Notes: generated by a model from the letters alone, not told the origin. Counted from the first letter of the stretch, positions 644 to 59,974 are shown. The stretch is 64,000 bases of DNA from Patescibacteria group bacterium (GCA_038063555.1 JBBTUX010000010.1:22936-86935); one strand, 5' to 3'. A program made the numbers and translations.

Positions 644-750
644 TATGTTTTAGATTCCCATTTTTTGCGCTACTTGCACAAAAAATGGCCTATTATATAC
701 TTATTTCATTGGTCGAAAACAATAAACCCACTTCATTTTTAATAAATATG

Positions 751-1020
751 AATAAAGCAGGATTGGTTGATGCGGTACAAGGAGTTTTGGGTGGCACCAA
801 AGTGCAAGCAGAGCAAGCGGTTGAAACATTTATAGGCGGTATAGTTAATGAATTAAAAAAGGGCGGCGAAGTATCAATTGCTGGTCTTGGAATATTCACC
901 GTCAAACAACGCGCCGCTCGCACTGCCAGAAACCCACGCACAGGAGAAATGGTGCAGGTAAAAGCTATGAAAGTACCGAAATTCCGCGCCGCTAAAGCTT
1001 TGAAAGAAGCTGTTAAGTAA
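751..1020 (+). CDS. hup: HU family DNA-binding protein
   Basis: MNKAGLVDAV...GEVSIAGLGIFTVKQRAARTARNPRTGEMVQVKAMKVPKFRAAKALKEA is a classic HU/IHF fold, ~90 aa. Internal ATG 751 preferred over the 685 ORF start. Confidence 0.85.
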   Translation, partial: NKAGLVDAVQGVLGGTKVQAEQAVETFIGGIVNELKKGGEVSIAGLGIFTVKQRAARTARNPRTGEMVQVKAMKVPKFRAAKALKEAVK

Positions 1021-1089: not shown

Positions 1090-1197
1090 AATAAAAGAAT
1101 CGCTCCTTACAGGAGCAGTCCCCTCATTGGATATTTTATTTCGCTTCACTCATAAAATCTGCTCAATGAGAATTCGATTCTCCCACGGAAGTGCTCC
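1090..1197 (-). ncRNA. Candidate structured small RNA X1, directly 3' of tRNA-Gly(TCC) on the minus strand
   Basis: Minus-strand read: GGAGCACUUCCGUGGGAGAAUCGAAUUCUC...GGGGACUGCUCCUGUAAGGAGCGAUUCUUUUAUUU. Terminal hairpin CUCCU-GUA-AGGAG plus U-tract. The 5' GAGAAUCG can pair with the 3' CGAUUCUU. No ORF. Paralog at 5167-5272 carries compensatory changes. Confidence 0.45.
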
Positions 1198-1371
1198 TGC
1201 ACTTCCTATCCTCGCATCGGCAATAACAAAAAATCTCTTCGCCAAAACGGAAGAGATTTTTTGTTAAAAGCCTTGTCCCACAATAATTCATTCTCCGTCG
1301 AGAATGAATTTTCCAGGCCCGGACTCGGCATTTTTTGTACTCAAAAAATATGCCTCCGTCTCACGCGAGTA

Positions 1372-1401
1372 CAAAAAAATCCCAAGCAGTTGGGATTTTT
1401 T
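1372..1401 (-). terminator. Hairpin + T/A runs between tRNA-Gly and downstream; bidirectional terminator-like
   Basis: aaaaaaatCCCAAgcagTTGGGattttttt. Confidence 0.5.
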
Positions 1402-1410
1402 TGTCTCTTG

Positions 1411-1481
1411 TGCGGGATGGGAGAATCGAACTCCCGACATCAGTTTGGAAAACTGAAGTTATACCATTTAACTAATCCCGC
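1411..1481 (-). tRNA. tRNA-Gly (anticodon TCC), no encoded CCA
   Basis: Reverse complement GCGGGAT-TA-GTTA-AATGGTA-TAAC-T-TCAGT-TTTCCAA-ACTGA-TGTC-GGGAG-TTCGATT-CTCCC-ATCCCGC-A folds as a cloverleaf. Anticodon loop is TT-TCC-AA. Confidence 0.85.
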
Positions 1482-1549
1482 AAATTCTTGCTTCGCTACT
1501 ATAGCAAAGCATTATCTTATCTTCAACAAAATAATGATAATATTAATTA

Positions 1550-2779
1550 ATGTTTTCTCTATTTGAAACTTTAATAAAAGTGGCTGCAGTTGGCTTCATT
1601 TCCCTTCTCGTTGCGGCAAACATCATTTCTCCCAACAAAACAAATACTTATGTTAAAGAAGATTTGAAAATAGCGACCACTACCCCATTAAACATAATTC
1701 TATCTACCTCTACAGAAGAAAAAATTGTCGAAATATCACAATCTTCATCCACTCCCGAAATAAAAACCATAACCAAAATTGAAAAAACCACAAAAATACC
1801 GAGCCCAAACACCCCAAACAAAACAAATGACCCCATAAAAGAAACTCTCGCCCCAATTGAAGAAAAATTAAACCTTTCCATTAAACAAATTGCAGAAACT
1901 CCGCAAGTAATTCCTAACGCCAATGAGGTCAATGTTTTGGTGAGAAAAGCCGCTGTAAACATCCTTTGTTATACCGAAGCTGGAAGTATTTTGAGACCAC
2001 TCACAGGAAGCGGGATCATTATAGATGAGAGAGGTGTTATTCTTACAAACGCTCACTTAGCTCAATACTTTCTTCTTAAAGATTTCCCAACCCCAAACAA
2101 CATCGATTGCATCATTAGAACGGGAAGCCCAGCGACAATAACTTACAGGGGGGAACTTTTATACATCTCCCCTCCTTGGGTTGAAGAAAATAAAAAAAAT
2201 ATAATTGAAGAAAATCCATTGGGGACAGGCGAACACGATTTTGGCCTCATTCTAATAACAAGTTCTGCCAATAAAGATATACCCCTACCCGTCACCTTTC
2301 CTTTTATCCCCTTTAATACTGAAGAACCCAATGAAAAAATGGCTCTTTCGGACTCTTATGTCGTCGTCGCCTACCCTGCTGGCTTTTTAGGCGGTCTCAC
2401 CGTTTTGCAAAATCTCTACATTTCTTCAACCGTTTCCAGCATTAAACAATTCTTTACTTTTAAAGACACAACCCTGGACTTAATGTCTTTAGGTGGCTCG
2501 ATTTTGGCCCAAAAAGGATCATCTGGGGGTGCTGTGGTAAATGTAAGAGAAAAGAAAGTCGTGGGAATTATTGTGACCACAACCACAGAGGGCACCACTT
2601 CAGCTAGAGACATGCGCGCCATTACCCTTTCGCATATAAACCGAAGCATTCAAGCCGTAACGAATCAGGGTTTAAGCGAATATCTTTCGGACAATTTAGT
2701 AAAAAAAGTTCTGGACTTTCGTCTAAGTAAATTTGATTATTTAAAAAACATTCTTGTTGGAGAATTAACGCACAACTAA
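1550..2779 (+). CDS. Membrane-anchored trypsin-like (S1 family) serine protease
   Basis: N-terminal TM segment. Catalytic-triad contexts GVILTNAHL (His), DFGLILI (Asp), GSSGGAVV (Ser). Confidence 0.7.
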   Translation: MFSLFETLIKVAAVGFISLLVAANIISPNKTNTYVKEDLKIATTTPLNIILSTSTEEKIVEISQSSSTPEIKTITKIEKTTKIPSPNTPNKTNDPIKETLAPIEEKLNLSIKQIAETPQVIPNANEVNVLVRKAAVNILCYTEAGSILRPLTGSGIIIDERGVILTNAHLAQYFLLKDFPTPNNIDCIIRTGSPATITYRGELLYISPPWVEENKKNIIEENPLGTGEHDFGLILITSSANKDIPLPVTFPFIPFNTEEPNEKMALSDSYVVVAYPAGFLGGLTVLQNLYISSTVSSIKQFFTFKDTTLDLMSLGGSILAQKGSSGGAVVNVREKKVVGIIVTTTTEGTTSARDMRAITLSHINRSIQAVTNQGLSEYLSDNLVKKVLDFRLSKFDYLKNILVGELTHN

Positions 2780-3087
2780 TTAAAGAACAACAGTAATCCT
2801 CCAATCGCTAGGATTATAAAAAAGAAAGTTACTAGAGTGTAAATAAAAAGTGACACCGCTTCCCTCTTTTTCCCCTCCATATACCAAAGTATTGGCTTAC
2901 CAAGCACAAGACCCGCAGTTACAGATGCTGAAAAAACAAAAAGTGACAACATAAAAATTGGTATCAAAATAAATGGCTCCTCTATTTGGAGACGCTTTGG
3001 GACAAAAAATAAAAAACTAGCAACAAGTGCAATATAAGCAACTGTCGCGAAGGCGTTAAAGATTGCGGTTTTAAGTATTGGGGTCAT
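2776..3087 (-). CDS. Small hypothetical membrane protein (3 predicted TM helices)
   Basis: 103-aa ORF, strongly hydrophobic, convergent with the protease gene. Confidence 0.45.
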   Translation of the reverse strand: MTPILKTAIFNAFATVAYIALVASFLFFVPKRLQIEEPFILIPIFMLSLFVFSASVTAGLVLGKPILWYMEGKKREAVSLFIYTLVTFFFIILAIGGLLLFFN

Positions 3088-3116
3088 ACAACTAAAACTG
3101 TCCTCGCTTCTCTAAG

Positions 3117-3746
3117 TCACTTTTTACTTTTTTCTAACTTTTCTAATCTATCTTTTATAGACTCTACCAAGTTTGCAAGTTCATTAAACTTTTTAGGAAA
3201 ATCAGAAATTTTATCAGATCCTTTTATCATGTGTTTTTGTTTACTTTTAAGGCTTTCGACCAAATATTGGATAATTTTGTCTCCTATTTTTATACCATTT
3301 TCACATTCATTTATGGTAAGTTTTTGGGCTGAAAACATCTTGTGTGCCAGAGCATCTCTTTTATCTTTGTAACTTTTAAGATCAGTAATCAAATTCAAAT
3401 CAGAATCATTTTGAGCACAAACATTCAAATAACTAATTAGGGCTCCGAGCTGTAATCTTTCTAATTCCTTCTCAAAATTACCAGTTGGGTTAAAAGATCT
3501 AAGAAAAATCAATTTTACCAGATAAAATTGAACTTCGTTCGTTTGAAGAATAAATCTGCCATACTTACTATTTTCTTTAATTTCATTTTGCTTAAAAACT
3601 TCTTCGACAAATTTTTTACGTAACCTTACATATTCTCGAGCTCTAGTTTCCTTATCTTTATTCACCATCTGACCATCTCTAACCAAACCAGCTAACTCAT
3701 GGTAACGCTTAAAAACAAGTTCTTTTGTTACTTCGGATTCATCCAT
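3117..3746 (-). CDS. Hypothetical protein with HEPN-like R-x4-H motif (possible Abi/HEPN RNase)
   Basis: 209-aa ORF. C-terminal segment KDKRDALAHKMF contains RDALAH, which fits the Rx4-6H HEPN signature. Adjacent to a tRNA with a duplicated 3' end. Confidence 0.35.
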   Translation of the reverse strand: MDESEVTKELVFKRYHELAGLVRDGQMVNKDKETRAREYVRLRKKFVEEVFKQNEIKENSKYGRFILQTNEVQFYLVKLIFLRSFNPTGNFEKELERLQLGALISYLNVCAQNDSDLNLITDLKSYKDKRDALAHKMFSAQKLTINECENGIKIGDKIIQYLVESLKSKQKHMIKGSDKISDFPKKFNELANLVESIKDRLEKLEKSKK

Positions 3747-3756
3747 ACTTTAGATT

Positions 3757-3800
3757 TTAAAGATTTTGAATTAAATTCTTCATAGTCGGGGCGCTGGGTG
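3757..3800 (-). repeat. Direct-repeat copy of the tRNA-Pro 3' end plus ~25 bp trailer (attL/attR-like)
   Basis: aaagattttgaattaaattcttcatagtcggggcgctggg repeats aaagattttttaaattaagttcatagtcggggcgctggg at 3946-3990. Confidence 0.6.
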
Positions 3801-3975
3801 AGAACGCGAAGCGTTCGCAAGACCTTGTGAGGTATTTTAGAACGGAGTTATAAAATATCCACAAGGTATAGAGCTTCTGTAAGAAGTCGAACCTTTCTAC
3901 TTAAATTTCTTATAGAAATTTCCGCAGAAGTATCCCATACTTCTGGTTAAAAGATTTTTTAAATTAAGTTCATAG

Positions 3976-4046
3976 TCGGGGCGCTGGGAATCGAACCCAG
4001 TCTACTTGATCCCAAATCAAGCGTACTACCGGTATACTACGCCCCG
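3976..4046 (-). tRNA. tRNA-Pro (anticodon TGG), no encoded CCA
   Basis: Reverse complement CGGGGCG-TA-GTAT-ACCGGTA-GTAC-G-CTTGA-TTTGGGA-TCAAG-TAGA-CTGGG-TTCGATT-CCCAG-CGCCCCG-A. Anticodon loop is TT-TGG-GA. Confidence 0.8.
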
Positions 4047-4199
4047 ACTATGAACTCAATATCTAAATTTCAAAAATCTTTTAACCCCAAATCAAACACT
4101 AGCAACACCTTCGGTGAGCAGTGCCGGCATATTCACCCGCCTAAATTTTGCTCGGCAAAACTTTGGCGGGCAAGCCCCGTAAAAACAAAAACAATACTA

Positions 4200-4240
4200 A
4201 CATTAAAAAGTGTAAATGTCTTAAAGGACATAAAAGACAT
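4200..4240 (-). terminator. Hairpin terminator downstream of yraN
   Basis: GATGTCTTaaaggacataAAGACATC stem (8 bp), followed on the minus strand by a U-rich run. Confidence 0.4.
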
Positions 4241-4627
4241 CTAGAAAATTCCCTCTATATACTTAACTTTAGCTTTTTTATTCTCCTTGTCCAAAATAAC
4301 CACTATCAAATCCATTTGCCAATCGCTCTCCCCTTCTCCTTTTTCTAATAAATAAGAGTTTATAGTCCTTTCAAGGCGCCTTAGCTTAAAAGGGTGCACA
4401 TTTTCCTCTGCTTTAAAGCCAGATGTTTCATGTGTAACGGTTTTAACCTCAATAAAGTAGAGATTATTCCCTTTCTTACAGATAATATCTATTTCACCCC
4501 AAGGTTTAAGATAGTTACGCTCTAACAATTTAAAACCCTTACTCTCTAAATACTTAATGGCAATGGATTCACCCAAATCCCCTATTTTTCTCTTTTCTGT
4601 CTTTTTTTTAGGTTTAAAATCTTTCAC
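4241..4627 (-). CDS. yraN: YraN family (UPF0102) endonuclease
   Basis: GDLGESIAIKYLESKGFKLLERNYLKPWGEIDIICKKGNNLYFIEVK is the typical YraN N-terminus. The start looks like GTG embedded in a CACGTGAAAG palindrome. Confidence 0.7.
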   Translation of the reverse strand: MKDFKPKKKTEKRKIGDLGESIAIKYLESKGFKLLERNYLKPWGEIDIICKKGNNLYFIEVKTVTHETSGFKAEENVHPFKLRRLERTINSYLLEKGEGESDWQMDLIVVILDKENKKAKVKYIEGIF

Positions 4628-4907
4628 GTGTAATCTTTTCTTTAATTTTTCTAGTGTTTCACGTGAAAACTATTATTTTATTTCACATGAAACTATTTAC
4701 TCTTAAAATGTCAAATAATGGCTTACTTTGGCTCTTTAATGACTTTTAGCACAGAAATTTACTTTTTTACAATTGTCTTTTATAAACACAATCCCCATTT
4801 TTATCCACAATTTTTATAATTTGGCTTAAATAAAGAGTTTTCTGGACTTTTTTTTGACATATTCAAATGTCCGTTATTATTTTCTGTCCTTTTAAGCTCT
4901 TTTTACC

Positions 4908-5047
4908 TATTTTAGTGCGAGTAGGGAGACGCTTCGCTATCGAACACCTTGGAAACCTCTCGGTTTTCCAACTCTCGCTTCGCTCGTTGCCTTCCTCCAC
5001 GGGAAACTTCCGTTTCCCGACCCCTTCCCAGTTCGATTCTCCCCATA
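4908..5047 (-). ncRNA. Candidate structured element Y, 3' of tRNA-Gly(GCC); contains two GNRA-capped hairpins and a T-arm antisense segment
   Basis: Minus-strand read: GGGGAGAAUCGAACUGGG...GGGAAAC-GGAA-GUUUCCC...GGAAACC-GAGA-GGUUUCC...GUUCGAU. The 5' GGGAGAAUCGAACU is the reverse complement of the adjacent tRNA-Gly T-arm. ORFs 4867..5235 and 4937..5128 over it are judged spurious. Confidence 0.35.
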
Positions 5048-5121
5048 TGGTGCGGGTAGGGAGAATCGAACTCCCATCATTTGATTGGCAACCAAATGTT
5101 CTACCATTGAACCATACCCGC
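5048..5121 (-). tRNA. tRNA-Gly (anticodon GCC), CCA encoded
   Basis: Reverse complement GCGGGTA-TG-GTTC-AATGGTA-GAAC-A-TTTGG-TTGCCAA-TCAAA-TGAT-GGGAG-TTCGATT-CTCCC-TACCCGC-A-CCA. Confidence 0.85.
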
Positions 5122-5166
5122 TATACAAACCTACTTGGGAATTCTAATATAAATATCCTATTTCTC

Positions 5167-5272
5167 CAAAAAATGGACTCGTTCCTTACAGGAACAGTAC
5201 CCCAATTGGATTTTTCTTACGCCTACGGCTTATAAAAATCTCAATCGGGCTTCGAGTCCCGCGGACACCTCC
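5167..5272 (-). ncRNA. Candidate structured small RNA X2 (paralog of X1), directly 3' of tRNA-Arg
   Basis: Minus-strand read: GGAGGUGUCCGCGGGACUCGAAGCCCGAUUGAG...GGGGUACUGUUCCUGUAAGGAACGAGUCCAUUUUUUGG. Terminator hairpin GUUCCU-GUA-AGGAAC carries compensatory changes relative to X1. The 5' GGACUCG pairs with the 3' CGAGUCC. The 5' segment is antisense to a tRNA-Arg-like T-arm. Confidence 0.45.
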
Positions 5273-5314
5273 TAAAAGCAAAATTACCATTGAAAAACAA
5301 TGCTAATTTTGCTT

Positions 5315-5389
5315 TGGCGCCCCCGGCAGGACTCGAACCCACAATAACAGTTCCGAAGACTGCTGTGATATCCATTTCACCACGGAGGC
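5315..5389 (-). tRNA. tRNA-Arg (anticodon TCG), CCA encoded
   Basis: Reverse complement GCCTCCG-TG-GTGA-AATGGATA-TCAC-A-GCAGT-CTTCGGA-ACTGT-TATT-GTGGG-TTCGAGT-CCTGC-CGGGGGC-G-CCA. The T-stem has two G-U pairs. Confidence 0.65.
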
Positions 5390-5391
5390 AA

Positions 5392-6066
5392 TTATCTCTT
5401 AACTTGATGATAATAGCTTAGAATAAGCTTTTTCCAAACATTAAGAGTGCGAATATTGTTGATACCGGATACAGAAATCTGTAAAAACCCTTTATTTGAG
5501 CCATTTTCTTTAGTTTTTTGCCTAGTTTTATATATCACCGGCTTTAGAAATTGCTTGTCATTTATAGCTATTTTACGAATCCAGGCGCTTTGTGCCTCTA
5601 AATGGGATATATTGTTATTTATATATATTCTACAGCGTGTAGCCGAAACTGGCACTCCCAGAAAGCGAATTAACCAATCTAGGAATATTTGCACCACCTC
5701 CTCATCACTCGAACTAAACTGCAAGTAAGAATTGCCGAAAGATCCATGCGAAAGATACATAGAAAGCCCCACCAAAAAGCGAGTGTCGGACTGAAACTTT
5801 TTAAAACTTTTTTGCCCCCCCACAAGCGCCTGTCTTTCGCCAAAAACTTTCTTCATTTGGCGACTCAATTTACTCTTATTTCGGGACCGTAAAATGACCT
5901 CTTTTTGATGCTTCAAGAGACCTTCTTTTTCCAAAGGAGAAAGAGTGATGCCTTGGAACCATTTTGAAAGTAGGCCTCTACTTAATTTCAATTTTAGAGA
6001 AATTTCAGAGTAAGTAGCCCCGTTTTTTCTCATTAAAAGCGCTTGTTCTTTAATTGAAACACTCAT
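5392..6066 (-). CDS. Hypothetical protein with N-terminal helix-turn-helix
   Basis: 224 aa. N-terminal ATYSEISLKLKLSRGLLSKW is HTH-like. The C-terminal half has a weak LxGLxxxxxHGSFG segment, possibly a degenerate LAGLIDADG-like motif (speculative). Abuts the tRNA cluster. Confidence 0.4.
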   Translation of the reverse strand: MSVSIKEQALLMRKNGATYSEISLKLKLSRGLLSKWFQGITLSPLEKEGLLKHQKEVILRSRNKSKLSRQMKKVFGERQALVGGQKSFKKFQSDTRFLVGLSMYLSHGSFGNSYLQFSSSDEEVVQIFLDWLIRFLGVPVSATRCRIYINNNISHLEAQSAWIRKIAINDKQFLKPVIYKTRQKTKENGSNKGFLQISVSGINNIRTLNVWKKLILSYYHQVKR

Positions 6067-6167: not shown

Positions 6168-7652
6168 ATGAAACGAGCGTCATCAGAAGGAATTGAAATA
6201 CCAAAGGAAGTTCTTTCCGTTTCTTCCGATTTAGGAAAAGCGGGATTTGAAAACTATCTTATTGGTGGCTGTGTTCGCGACCTGCTTCGCGGTCAAAATC
6301 CCAAAGATTGGGACATTACGACCAATGCCACGCCGGAAGAAATTTTGAAGATTTTTCCCCACACTTTTTATACCAATACTTTTGGCACAGTTGGAGTGGT
6401 AAACAAAGAAACAAACAACGAATCCCTTAAAACAATTGAGGTCACAACTTACAGAGAAGAAGGAACTTATTCAAATGCAAGACACCCAGATGAAGTGAAG
6501 TTTAGTAAAAATATAAATGATGACTTGAAGCGTCGCGATTTCACCATTAACGCAATTGCTCTGGACCCCCACAATGGAAAAGTGATGGATCCATATGACG
6601 GTCAAAAGGACATAAAGGACAAAATCATACGCGCAGTGGGGAAAGCCGAGGACAGATTTGAGGAAGATGCTTTAAGAATACTCCGCGCTATACGACTTTC
6701 CTCTGAAATTGGCTTTATTATTGAGGCAAATACCGAAAAAGCCATACAAAATAAGGCTAAAACGCTAGAAAAGATATCCAAAGAACGTATTAGAGACGAG
6801 TTTTGCCGTATTCTAATGTCTCCCGAACCTATGAAAGGCCTTAATTTAGCCCTAAAATTGGGAGTTTTACGGTATGTTGCCAAAGATTTAGAGAGGGGAA
6901 TTGGCGTAAAGCAAAACCAGGCTCACAAATATGATGTTTTTGAGCATAATTTACGCACCCTACAACACGCGGCGGATAAAAAGTATGATTTGGACTTACG
7001 TCTTTCCTCGCTTTTTCATGATATTTCCAAACCAGAAACACGTCGCTTTTCACGTGAAAAGAATGATTATACCTTTCACGGTCATGACGTAGTCGGTGGC
7101 AAATTAGTCAAAAAAATCCTTACAGAGCTTAAATTCCCGTCCAACCGAGTTGAAAAGATAGGGAAGATGGTCCGTTGGCACATGTTCTTTTCAGACCCAG
7201 AACAAATCACACTTTCTGCGGTAAGACGACTCATTTCTAATGTTGGTAAAGAAGATGTTTGGGAGCTTATGAATTTGCGCATTTGCGACCGCATAGGCAC
7301 CGGCAGACCCAAAGAAAACCCTTATAGATTCAGAAAGTATAAATCTATGGTAGAAGAGGCGTTACAGGACGCCGTTTCCGTTGGAATGCTCAAAATAAAA
7401 GGGGATAGCATTATGAAAGTGCTCGGGGTACCACCCGGACCTAAAATCGGTTATATTTTACACGCTCTTTTTGAAGAGGTGTTGGATAAACCTGAATTAA
7501 ACACTTTAAAATACTTAGAAAAAAGAGCAGGAGAATTGAACAAACTTGGAATTGGCGAATTAGAGAAATTGGGTAAAAAGGGTAAAGAAAAAAAAGAACG
7601 AGAACAAGAGAAAAAAGTAAAAGAAATAAGAGGAAAGTATTTCGTAGAATGA
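6168..7652 (+). CDS. cca: CCA-adding tRNA nucleotidyltransferase with HD domain and Lys/Glu-rich C-terminal tail
   Basis: GGCVRDLLRG...DWD polymerase-beta-type head motif and an HD region. Start ATG sits inside a TTTCACATGAAAC palindrome. Confidence 0.8.
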   Translation: MKRASSEGIEIPKEVLSVSSDLGKAGFENYLIGGCVRDLLRGQNPKDWDITTNATPEEILKIFPHTFYTNTFGTVGVVNKETNNESLKTIEVTTYREEGTYSNARHPDEVKFSKNINDDLKRRDFTINAIALDPHNGKVMDPYDGQKDIKDKIIRAVGKAEDRFEEDALRILRAIRLSSEIGFIIEANTEKAIQNKAKTLEKISKERIRDEFCRILMSPEPMKGLNLALKLGVLRYVAKDLERGIGVKQNQAHKYDVFEHNLRTLQHAADKKYDLDLRLSSLFHDISKPETRRFSREKNDYTFHGHDVVGGKLVKKILTELKFPSNRVEKIGKMVRWHMFFSDPEQITLSAVRRLISNVGKEDVWELMNLRICDRIGTGRPKENPYRFRKYKSMVEEALQDAVSVGMLKIKGDSIMKVLGVPPGPKIGYILHALFEEVLDKPELNTLKYLEKRAGELNKLGIGELEKLGKKGKEKKEREQEKKVKEIRGKYFVE

Positions 7653-59729: not shown

Positions 59730-59902
59730 ATGTTTATAGAGTTATACTGCCTTTTAATAATAACATGTCGTCACAAGTTTTTTCTTGCTAGAAAAACTCG
59801 CGACCCGACAAGACAATATAGTGCCTAAGCACTTTTTGTCCGCGACCGCCACGCTCCGGCTCGGACAAGTTTTAAACTTTGTCCCACAAACTTTAAAACT
59901 TG

Positions 59903-59974
59903 TCCGCCCGGGAGGAATCGAACCTCCGACCAATTGCTTAAAAGGCAACTGCTCTACCCCTGAGCTACGGGCGG
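59903..59974 (-). tRNA. tRNA-Lys (anticodon TTT), no encoded CCA
   Basis: Reverse complement CCGCCCG-TA-GCTC-AGGGGTA-GAGC-A-GTTGC-CTTTTAA-GCAAT-TGGTC-GGAGG-TTCGATT-CCTCC-CGGGCGG-A. Followed on the minus strand by a palindromic hairpin at 59848-59902. Confidence 0.85.

Follow-up and report, generated by a model that had tools for sequence, protein, structure and literature searches.

What are the structured, non-coding segments that lie downstream of tRNA genes in a Patescibacteria group bacterium? We analysed a stretch of 64,000 nucleotides (nt) from this genome (GCA_038063555.1 JBBTUX010000010.1:22936-86935; hereafter the window), in which an initial annotation, made from the sequence alone, had singled out three such elements, X1, X2 and Y, on the minus strand. 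Elements of this kind have a common architecture, arms specific to the neighbouring tRNA, covarying helices and a clear folding polarity; they occur in high copy number over a wide range of Patescibacteria, form arrays and turn over between species. They could well be a Patescibacteria-wide superfamily of non-autonomous, non-coding mobile cassettes of ~100-160 nt that home to the T-loop and 3' end of tRNA (and transfer-messenger RNA, tmRNA) genes, a reading that we adopt tentatively and stop short of calling probable.

X1, X2 and the tRNA genes to which they belong are laid out as follows, P denoting helices, J junction strands, S1 the tRNA tail and S2 its duplicate.

1410-1481, minus strand: tRNA-Gly(TCC), anchor of the array ending in X1
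1371-1404, minus strand: perfect palindrome of A-run, hairpin and T-run after tRNA-Gly(TCC)
about 1227-1263, minus strand: spacer hairpin preceding X1
1095-1215, minus strand: X1, long form
1208-1215, minus strand: X1 acceptor-complement, gcgaggat
1187-1206, minus strand: X1 hairpin H0
1173-1184, minus strand: X1 antisense arm, GGGAGAAUCGAA
1122-1171, minus strand: X1 P2
1116-1121, minus strand: X1 J2/3, GGACUG
1103-1115, minus strand: X1 P3
1095-1102, minus strand: X1 P1 3' strand and decayed S2 (CGAUUCUU), with a U-rich tail next
5315-5389, minus strand: tRNA-Arg(TCG), target and anchor of X2, its segment from T-loop to 3' end being S1
5273-5314, minus strand: AT-rich spacer hairpin with U-run from tRNA-Arg to X2, in the place of the terminator-like hairpin of most members
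5168-5262, minus strand: X2, short form without H0
5253-5262, minus strand: X2 antisense arm and P1 5' strand, gcGGGACTCG
5250-5252, minus strand: X2 J1/2, AAG
5201-5249, minus strand: X2 P2 with capping hairpin
5195-5200, minus strand: X2 J2/3, GUACUG
5182-5194, minus strand: X2 P3 (UUCC-UGUAA-GGAA)
5175-5181, minus strand: X2 P1 3' strand and decayed S2 (CGAGUCC)
5168-5173, minus strand: X2 U-run

A 29-nt pattern common to X1 and X2 has only these two sites in the window, with 0 expected. A family profile from other genomes detects both (nhmmer E = 1e-17 for X1 and 3e-21 for X2), and both share one three-way-junction fold (z = -2.3 and -4.1), in which P1 is the outer helix, P2 bears an A/U-rich capping hairpin and a GA-rich internal loop, and P3 is closed by a UGUAA loop. 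X1 also has an orthologue at another locus (L112). Of the three paralogues originally proposed, X1 and X2 are thus homologous by pattern, profile and fold, whereas the core of Y differs and only the architecture is common to all three. The compensatory changes reported between X1 and X2 are real: P3 is CUCC/GGAG in the former and UUCC/GGAA in the latter, P2 has UCUCAUUG/CAAUGAGG against CCCGAUUG/CAAUUGGG, and the same pairs covary over 107 family members. Each 5' arm is, as had been claimed, the reverse complement of the T-loop and T-stem 3' strand of the upstream tRNA (12/12 positions in X1, 13/14 in Y, 9/10 in X2); it pairs with the element's own 3' tail, and a hairpin with U-run closes both X1 and X2. 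We additionally found that this 3' tail repeats the tRNA 3' end in direct orientation, and that X1 has an upstream hairpin, H0, preceded by the complement of the acceptor 3' strand.

One positional claim fell: X1 does not directly follow tRNA-Gly(TCC). Its arm starts ~190 nt and its core 213-228 nt past the tRNA, and the interval holds a perfect terminator palindrome and a probable decayed element from a different family. Of their outer duplicated tails, X1 and X2 retain 7-8 nt after decay, and their cores are intact. The copies in the window are old. Transcription of the tRNA-Arg unit probably now stops at X2 and its U-run, and occasional exaptation of this kind seems likely.

How far does such an arrangement extend beyond these two copies? 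We scanned one genome per species (596 Gb) with the pattern GGGNACTGNNCCTGTAAGGNNCGA, which has 19 fixed bases, and found family X at no fewer than 119 genome loci, where by our own estimate ~4 would be expected by chance. The listed matches all fall in Patescibacteria, comprising Paceibacterota, Saccharibacteria and Taylor-, Zambryski-, Lloyd-, Kaiser- and Nomurabacteria; viral contigs gave 0 matches to the pattern. Scoring 126 copies (124 in the loci plus X1 and X2), we found a same-strand tRNA ending within 320 nt upstream of J2/3 in 96, mostly at 90-145 nt. These copies serve at least 18 tRNA isotypes, plus tmRNA-like ends, and X always has the orientation of its tRNA. The calls rest on ARAGORN, and these repeats may be collapsed or broken in metagenome-assembled genomes (MAGs). 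Several of the copies with no called tRNA sit after tmRNA-like 3' ends or intron-containing tRNAs, and these account for the long tRNA-to-X gaps that we had considered as places for an autonomous parent element. At L059, L090 and L103 (also L013), X lies behind tmRNA-like 3' ends (...TTCGATTC...CCATCTCCAC) and its arms match that RNA, so the target appears to be the T-arm/acceptor end and not the tRNA as such. At L024 and L069 the tRNA genes upstream of X are broken by inserts of ~250 nt, and ARAGORN misses or mis-sizes them. Group I introns have been reported in tRNAs of Patescibacteria, also known as the candidate phyla radiation or CPR (PMC13011429); the inserts are consistent with such introns, which do not explain the elements.

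A scan of metagenome loci with GGGGNCGGG-N10-18-CCCGTGGAGGAAGG gave at least 120 loci for Y1, the family of Y, and 74 of 121 copies have a same-strand tRNA upstream, mostly 15-80 nt away. The same frame, including H0, carries still other cores, namely X' (GAAAAGC...GGUGUACUG...), Yb (GAAAGNCGGAG...GGGGUCGCG...GUGAC) and further types. Of the 91 tRNAs that lie in the fetched loci and that the X pattern had not chosen, 33 have an antisense arm, 22 a duplicated tail and 17 both. Similar elements therefore recur behind other tRNA genes in hundreds of copies, and the initial view of a recurrent organised structure, as opposed to random spacer, is strongly supported by this number, by the covariation described below and by the specificity of arm for tRNA.

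The common layout can be read along the tRNA-sense strand. The tRNA, with its S1 segment from T-loop to 3' end, is followed by the trailer and then by a hairpin, usually an A-run, a GC stem and a T-run. Fourth comes the reverse complement of trailer, discriminator and acceptor 3' strand; fifth, where present, the hairpin H0 (GNAAGYGC-YGGGR-GCRCUUNC), which sits precisely where acceptor and T-stem meet; and sixth, T-stem 3' strand and T-loop in reverse complement, with TCGAA as the invariable end. The core then follows, and after it S2, consisting of CGA-N-T, the T-stem 3' strand and the acceptor 3' strand, with the trailer sometimes repeated. In the right flank S2 repeats the tRNA from C56 on, and the longest exact run shared by S1 and S2 has a median of 10 nt and a maximum of 33 nt, reaching into the non-conserved trailer. 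The matching is specific to the locus: the 5 nt before the inverted T-loop match the T-stem of the element's own tRNA at all five positions in 34% of cases, compared with 0.5% for other tRNAs.

Which strand of the tRNA does the left arm represent? It complements the 3' strand, discriminator and trailer and is not a copy of the 5' strand, as the tRNA-Ala loci L037, L094 and L113 make clear, where G3.U70 of the tRNA becomes A3-U70 in the arm pairing. We therefore rejected a tandem tRNA duplicate, in which the arm would be a copied 5' strand, on the complementarity to discriminator, trailer and U70. Furthermore, where CCA is not encoded, the arm is complementary to the genomic trailer and not to CCA (for example at L060, AAATTTGT vs ACAAATTT), which indicates DNA-templated copies. 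The same complementarity led us to reject a retro-copied mature tRNA or the primer-binding site of a retroelement.

Alignment-based structure prediction over the family copies brought out strong covariation in X. With P1, P2 and P3 specified, 88% of cells in the alignment of 107 X copies are standard pairs, and the covariation score is 0.416, compared with 0.141 for column shuffles (0/500 reached the observed score) and at most 0.112 for slid partners. Covarying pairs in P2 include CG70/UA18/GC14, GC46/GU33/UA17/CG7 and AU72/UA24/GC10; inner pairs of P3 read AU72/GC19/CG10/UA5, and the P1 pair adjoining the T-loop AU35/UA33/CG22. Both hairpins of family Y1 covary as well (for example AU56/GC24, AU39/CG31/GC6 and GC55/UA14/CG9). 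The fold has a polarity. The tRNA-sense strand is the more stable in 100 of 110 X copies, and G.U pairs are more frequent on it than on the other strand, both in the core (166 vs 66) and around H0 (100 vs 29). Better folding and the G.U bias together point to the tRNA-sense single strand as the selected fold.

A single strand under selection may be RNA, and we considered whether the elements are functional cis-encoded RNAs, made with or after the tRNA, whose core would be a ligand-binding, protein-binding or catalytic module. Extending the initial annotation, P1 and the pairing to the real tRNA tail would compete, gating 3' maturation, stability or termination of the tRNA; the cores may likewise be sensor RNAs whose P1 helix gates tRNA maturation. 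Covariation together with conserved junction and loop nucleotides speaks for this reading, as do the tRNA-sense bias and constant orientation, the U-runs that end X1 and X2, the position of X2 inside a tRNA cluster, the survival of cores while outer duplicated tails decay, and the point at which H0 exits the helix, which is precisely that of the D/anticodon domain in a tRNA. However, the arrangement of transcription signals argues against it. A terminator-like hairpin with T-run stands between tRNA and antisense arm in 50 of 77 copies (65%), the element has neither space nor signal for a promoter of its own, and a T-run follows it in only 10 of the 77. Promoter-like sites in the window lie before tRNAs, and none lies before X1 or X2; these two are among the minority with a U-run, and directly after X2 is the promoter-like site for tRNA-Gly(GCC). 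Moreover, the hairpin of tRNA tail and antisense arm has a median minimum free energy of -53.6 kcal/mol (-39.2 for the X fold itself), and by this prediction pairing at ~-54 kcal/mol would trap an essential tRNA near-irreversibly. The same tRNA, finally, has different cores or none across species, and arrays, nesting and orphan copies would be odd for a dedicated regulator. On balance we consider the RNA reading somewhat unlikely. The suggestion that the element sequesters the T-arm in a co-transcript is disfavoured on three of these grounds, namely the terminator before the arm, the ~-54 kcal/mol trap and the cores that vary or are absent at the same tRNA. The counts of terminators before the arm (50/77) and T-runs after the element (10/77) instead favour a life cycle at the DNA level with a folded single-strand intermediate.

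Turnover can be followed at single sites. By species, tRNA-Gly(GCC) carries X, X', Y1, Yb, X plus Yb, or nothing. Homogeneous arrays occur at L105 (112-nt unit), L116 (130 nt) and L122 (157 nt), and mixed arrays at L046, L120, L023 and the Gly-TCC locus of the window. Nesting is seen behind tRNA-Gly(GCC) at L101, where the P2 capping hairpin of one X-like element contains a second, and an orphan copy at L026 bears tRNA-Ser arms with no tRNA within 8 kb. L033 and L034 are 92-100% identical over tRNA, spacer and X, and their flanks do not align; L037 and L113 are 92-100% identical over the upstream 500 nt and 94-100% over X, with a replaced spacer palindrome (42-48% identity) and unrelated downstream sequence; L052 and L056 lose synteny at the element's end. 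Many copies are located at the ends of contigs. L016 and L067, which come from one MAG and sit at different tRNAs, have the P2 domain alone in common, which shows recombination among copies. Clustering by core similarity groups near-consensus cores together whatever their history. The proposal that these are tRNA-fragment repeats marking recombination hot spots comes closer to this evidence, on the basis of tRNA 3'-end duplication, turnover at orthologous sites and synteny breaks at the element boundary, but its notion of passive remnants does not hold because the cores are conserved and structured.

Could such patterns arise without any dedicated enzyme? Snap-back replication at the terminator and T-arm would make forward-inverted-forward copies of the tail, and cores might then spread between palindromes by template switching or gene conversion through shared T-loop sequence. 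Such replication errors would account for a frame that is exactly S, hairpin, S', S (S' being the antisense arm) with junctions at the terminator loop and T-loop, for arms that always match the local trailer, for the sub-domains alone shared by copies in one genome (L016/L067), for the spacer palindrome swapped as a unit between the close relatives L037 and L113, and for the lack of any linked enzyme among our findings. They leave unexplained several unrelated cores conserved in sequence and structure across CPR classes, the conservation of H0, and near-identical islands in unrelated genomes; we regard this explanation as quite improbable. A further possibility is that the elements are inert scars, made of decayed att sites and terminators that larger elements left when they integrated into tRNA genes; integrase insertion classically leaves direct repeats of the tRNA 3' end from the T-loop. 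Set against this are the uniform unit length of 110-160 nt, the conserved and covarying cores, the inverted arm, which is foreign to att scars, the hundreds of copies, and the lack of integrase remnants between tRNA and element. The covariation largely refutes a scar origin, which we judge highly improbable.

Returning to mobile cassettes, we infer mobility, current or recent, and a mechanism for it from the observations above. On the tRNA-sense single strand, the antisense arm would pair with the copy of the tRNA tail and so present a duplex replica of the target beside the core. An unlinked enzyme acting in trans might recognise replica and core, the latter serving as recognition module. Insertion at or after T-loop position 55/56-60 would then give the tRNA a new tail and hairpin and displace the old tail to the far side. 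By analogy, this scheme resembles folded single-strand att sites (attC, attP of CTX phage) or snap-back junctions.

Several observations weigh against mobile cassettes. We found no recombinase, transposase or reverse transcriptase linked to the elements: neither the window nor the 119 loci, each up to 8 kb long, contain a tyrosine-recombinase motif, and the flanks of X, examined to 8 kb at most, show no mobile-element protein that recurs. Housekeeping genes do recur nearby, and the repeated neighbours are a syntenic CCA-adding enzyme, a helix-turn-helix (HTH) protein of 222-224 aa and UPF0102. No pair of empty and filled sites between close strains, nor a free or circular form, was observed; contigs with proteins identical to those of the window represent one strain, and their differences lie outside the elements. 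In many species X stands behind tRNA-Arg(TCG) with its synteny preserved, as would also be expected had it been inherited vertically over a long time. Between copies at different tRNAs, parts of the scaffold are alike and the arms are not, and the matching of the arm to each new tRNA lies outside the cassette explanation, unexplained by it. The G.U bias fits RNA and single-stranded DNA (ssDNA) alike, and a functional RNA would account equally well for the strong conservation of unpaired nucleotides and for motifs typical of RNA, such as the UGUAA loop and tandem G.A in many Y1 arms. Finally, the invariance of J2/3, the P3 loop and CGA is imposed by the search pattern, of which TCGAAG, AUUGAG and CCAAU are independent.

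Another way to view the arms is as the guide of a self-retargeting insertion system, in which the antisense arm would pair with the 3' end of a tRNA gene or with its transcript to choose the site. This would explain why one core family stands behind nearly every tRNA isotype, and we think it unlikely, together with its other parts: a core that is a catalytic or enzyme-docking module and arms re-templated per target, in a programmable mobile unit of ~120 nt without a gene of its own.

We compared the elements with known systems, each of which fails at least one defining feature. Like integron attC sites and attP(+) of CTX phage, they have imperfect inverted repeats of which one strand folds to copy a double-stranded target, a variable structured apex, and units that pile up in arrays at one site; they also have a strand-specific single-strand fold with stem structure conserved above sequence, a property that RNA and DNA would show alike. 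They differ in having no integron integrase, attI or cargo gene, in arms that are copies of tRNA tails and change with the locus, and in an apex that is a conserved three-way junction; ssDNA as the active form is putative here. Nor do they follow the R'/R'' consensus or the attC core sites RYYYAAC...GTTRRRY: the arms end in ...ANTCGAA and begin with (TT)CGANT, and GTTCGAW has C at the first R. With tRNA-targeting integrative elements (prophages, islands, integrative and conjugative elements) they share direct repeats of the tRNA 3' end from the T-loop, as in attL/attR, and a replacement tail that keeps the tRNA intact with the displaced tail at the far end. Unlike those, the units are only 110-160 nt, have no integrase or gene and an extra inverted tail copy, and one core family uses nearly all tRNA isotypes.

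Miniature inverted-repeat transposable elements (MITEs) and repetitive extragenic palindromic or bacterial interspersed mosaic elements (REP/BIME) are likewise small, non-coding, multi-copy, strongly folded, located just downstream of genes, disruptive to assemblies and without linked transposase. The terminal repeats of MITEs, however, are constant and their duplications short and fixed, whereas here the repeats are templated by the neighbouring tRNA and the duplication is 7-33 nt; in contrast to MITEs and REP/BIME alike, site and orientation specificity are strict and cores are conserved across bacterial classes. The guide RNAs of insertion sequences (IS110 bridge RNA, IS200/IS605 guides, omega RNA) also present a constant scaffold interrupted by target-complementary segments, but no IS110, TnpA, TnpB or IscB gene lies nearby (flanks up to 8 kb), complementarity spans 12-30 nt and reaches into a locus-specific trailer, and the target is duplicated on both sides. 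In Salmonella, tandem inversion duplications form by snap-back, with forward-inverted-forward junctions at pre-existing hairpins. That order and those junctions recur here, except that the junction loop holds a conserved core and the structure recurs at most tRNAs of a superphylum. We see a modest but genuine chance that the mechanism is categorically new.

No RNA family in Rfam 15 matches the elements. A scan of Rfam 15 at gathering score passed the tRNAs alone, and at E up to 10 over X1, X2 and Y it gave weak, chance-level hits far below gathering (for example rimP and ohsC at the X1 3' edge). No described element of this kind was found in the searchable literature, and the X and Y families are apparently undescribed. 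We rejected a tRNA, tmRNA or tRNA-like gene, since neither ARAGORN nor the Rfam tRNA model ever calls the elements and pairing continues into the trailer; ARAGORN and the G.U strand test rule out a tRNA-like gene on the opposite strand. A hammerhead or known self-cleaving ribozyme was likewise rejected: the CUGANGA/GAAA core does not fit junction strands of AAG, G(U)ACUG and 0 nt, and Rfam gives no match.

CPR/Patescibacteria genomes are very small, yet a large share of their tRNA genes carry elements, about a third to two fifths of the non-selected tRNAs in the fetched loci. If mobile, these would be among the smallest site-specific elements known, with arm matching as a possible programmable targeting principle; if RNAs, they would form a class of structured, tRNA-linked RNA that is new and very abundant. 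In practice, they bring contig breaks, chimeric joins and spurious open reading frame (ORF) calls to CPR assemblies and provide markers of synteny breakpoints, and X, Y1, Yb and X' are families ready for covariance models in annotation.

The third element that had been singled out, Y, is a member of family Y1 and stands behind tRNA-Gly(GCC).

5048-5121, minus strand: tRNA-Gly(GCC), anchor of Y
4915-5044, minus strand: Y, family Y1 member
5031-5044, minus strand: Y antisense arm S'
5000-5019, minus strand: Y hairpin A (GGAA loop)
about 4990-5003, minus strand: Y conserved CCCGUGGAGGAAGG
about 4972-4989, minus strand: Y lineage-specific insert
4949-4971, minus strand: Y hairpin B (GAGA loop)
4915-4945, minus strand: Y S2, duplicated tRNA 3' end, with a 9-nt mini-hairpin inserted at 4930-4938

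Both of the GNRA-capped hairpins described in Y (GGAA and GAGA) are there, and both covary in family Y1. The Y terminus, gttcgat[agcgaagcg]tctccctacTcgcac, is the Gly-GCC 3' end interrupted by the mini-hairpin. The place straight after CGAU in the 3' arm is a hot spot for added modules: an extra mini-hairpin, (A)AGCG-UACU-CGCGG, with covarying variants GUG-UACU-CAC and AUG-UACU-UAU, occurs there in L059, L068, L102, L103, L107, L115, L025, L031, L040, L048 and L114, and at the same site Y carries AGCGAAGCG (window 4930-4938) and L074 a 40-nt hairpin. In two Logan contigs, L002 (1-506) and L004 (1-371), the Y core (window 5029 downward) is joined to high-GC L33 (rpmG) sequence. This join implies that a stretch of at least k-mer length is present in another organism; it is most likely a chimera through a common k-mer, from a near-identical Y1 core in another organism of the same samples.

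The window is identical to a metagenome contig from Hainich groundwater. It has a low GC content (~38%) and, by ARAGORN and Rfam, four minus-strand tRNA genes in its first 5.4 kb and one at 59.9 kb, in agreement with the positions initially given for the tRNA genes named there. Judging by sequence matches, some of them weak, related elements probably lie behind all five; the weak ones are Yb remnants and an inverted X-like copy (nhmmer E = 0.004-0.14).

3975-4046, minus strand: tRNA-Pro(TGG), called by ARAGORN
59902-59974, minus strand: tRNA-Lys(TTT)
1274-1362, minus strand: probable decayed Yb-type element (AGACGGAGG...GAGUCCGGG...GUGGGAC; nhmmer E = 0.14)
59770-59861, minus strand: probable decayed Yb-type element downstream of tRNA-Lys(TTT) (nhmmer E = 0.004)
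3802-3899, plus strand: possible X-like core, inverted, between two direct copies of the tRNA-Pro 3' end (weak, nhmmer E = 0.048)

The candidate at 1274-1362 has the right place and strand and resembles the tRNA-Gly(TCC) element of L032. Behind tRNA-Pro, 20 nt of the tail at 3969-3988 (cccagcgccccgactatgaa) are repeated at 3779-3798, with a similar trailer after. The tRNA-Pro precursor also has an extended stem (3940-4085, minus strand), in which leader and trailer pair for at least 8 nt past the acceptor stem (ttcatagt...actatgaa); together with further A/T-rich complementarity, this makes it unusually long.

Other features adjoin the elements. A bidirectional intrinsic terminator at 1053-1070 (CCCCGUGCUAAUCUGGGG between A- and U-runs) is common to the HU gene (685-1020, plus strand) and the tRNA-Gly/X1 array of the minus strand. 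The gene for the CCA-adding enzyme (6168-7652, plus strand) adjoins the tRNA cluster, a synteny kept in 15 loci, and CCA is not encoded in most tRNA genes of these genomes. A 224-aa protein (5392-6066, minus strand) is encoded immediately upstream of tRNA-Arg(TCG), with homologues in the same place in 11 other CPR loci; its only match is a weak one to HTH_23 in Pfam, with nothing in NCBIfam or the PDB. Short ORFs run across tRNAs and elements at 4867-5235 (plus strand), 4912-5046 (minus strand) and 1127-1267 (plus strand). One of them, of 122 aa, is annotated as a gene in the public contig L001; all of these ORFs are almost certainly spurious calls caused by the non-coding elements.

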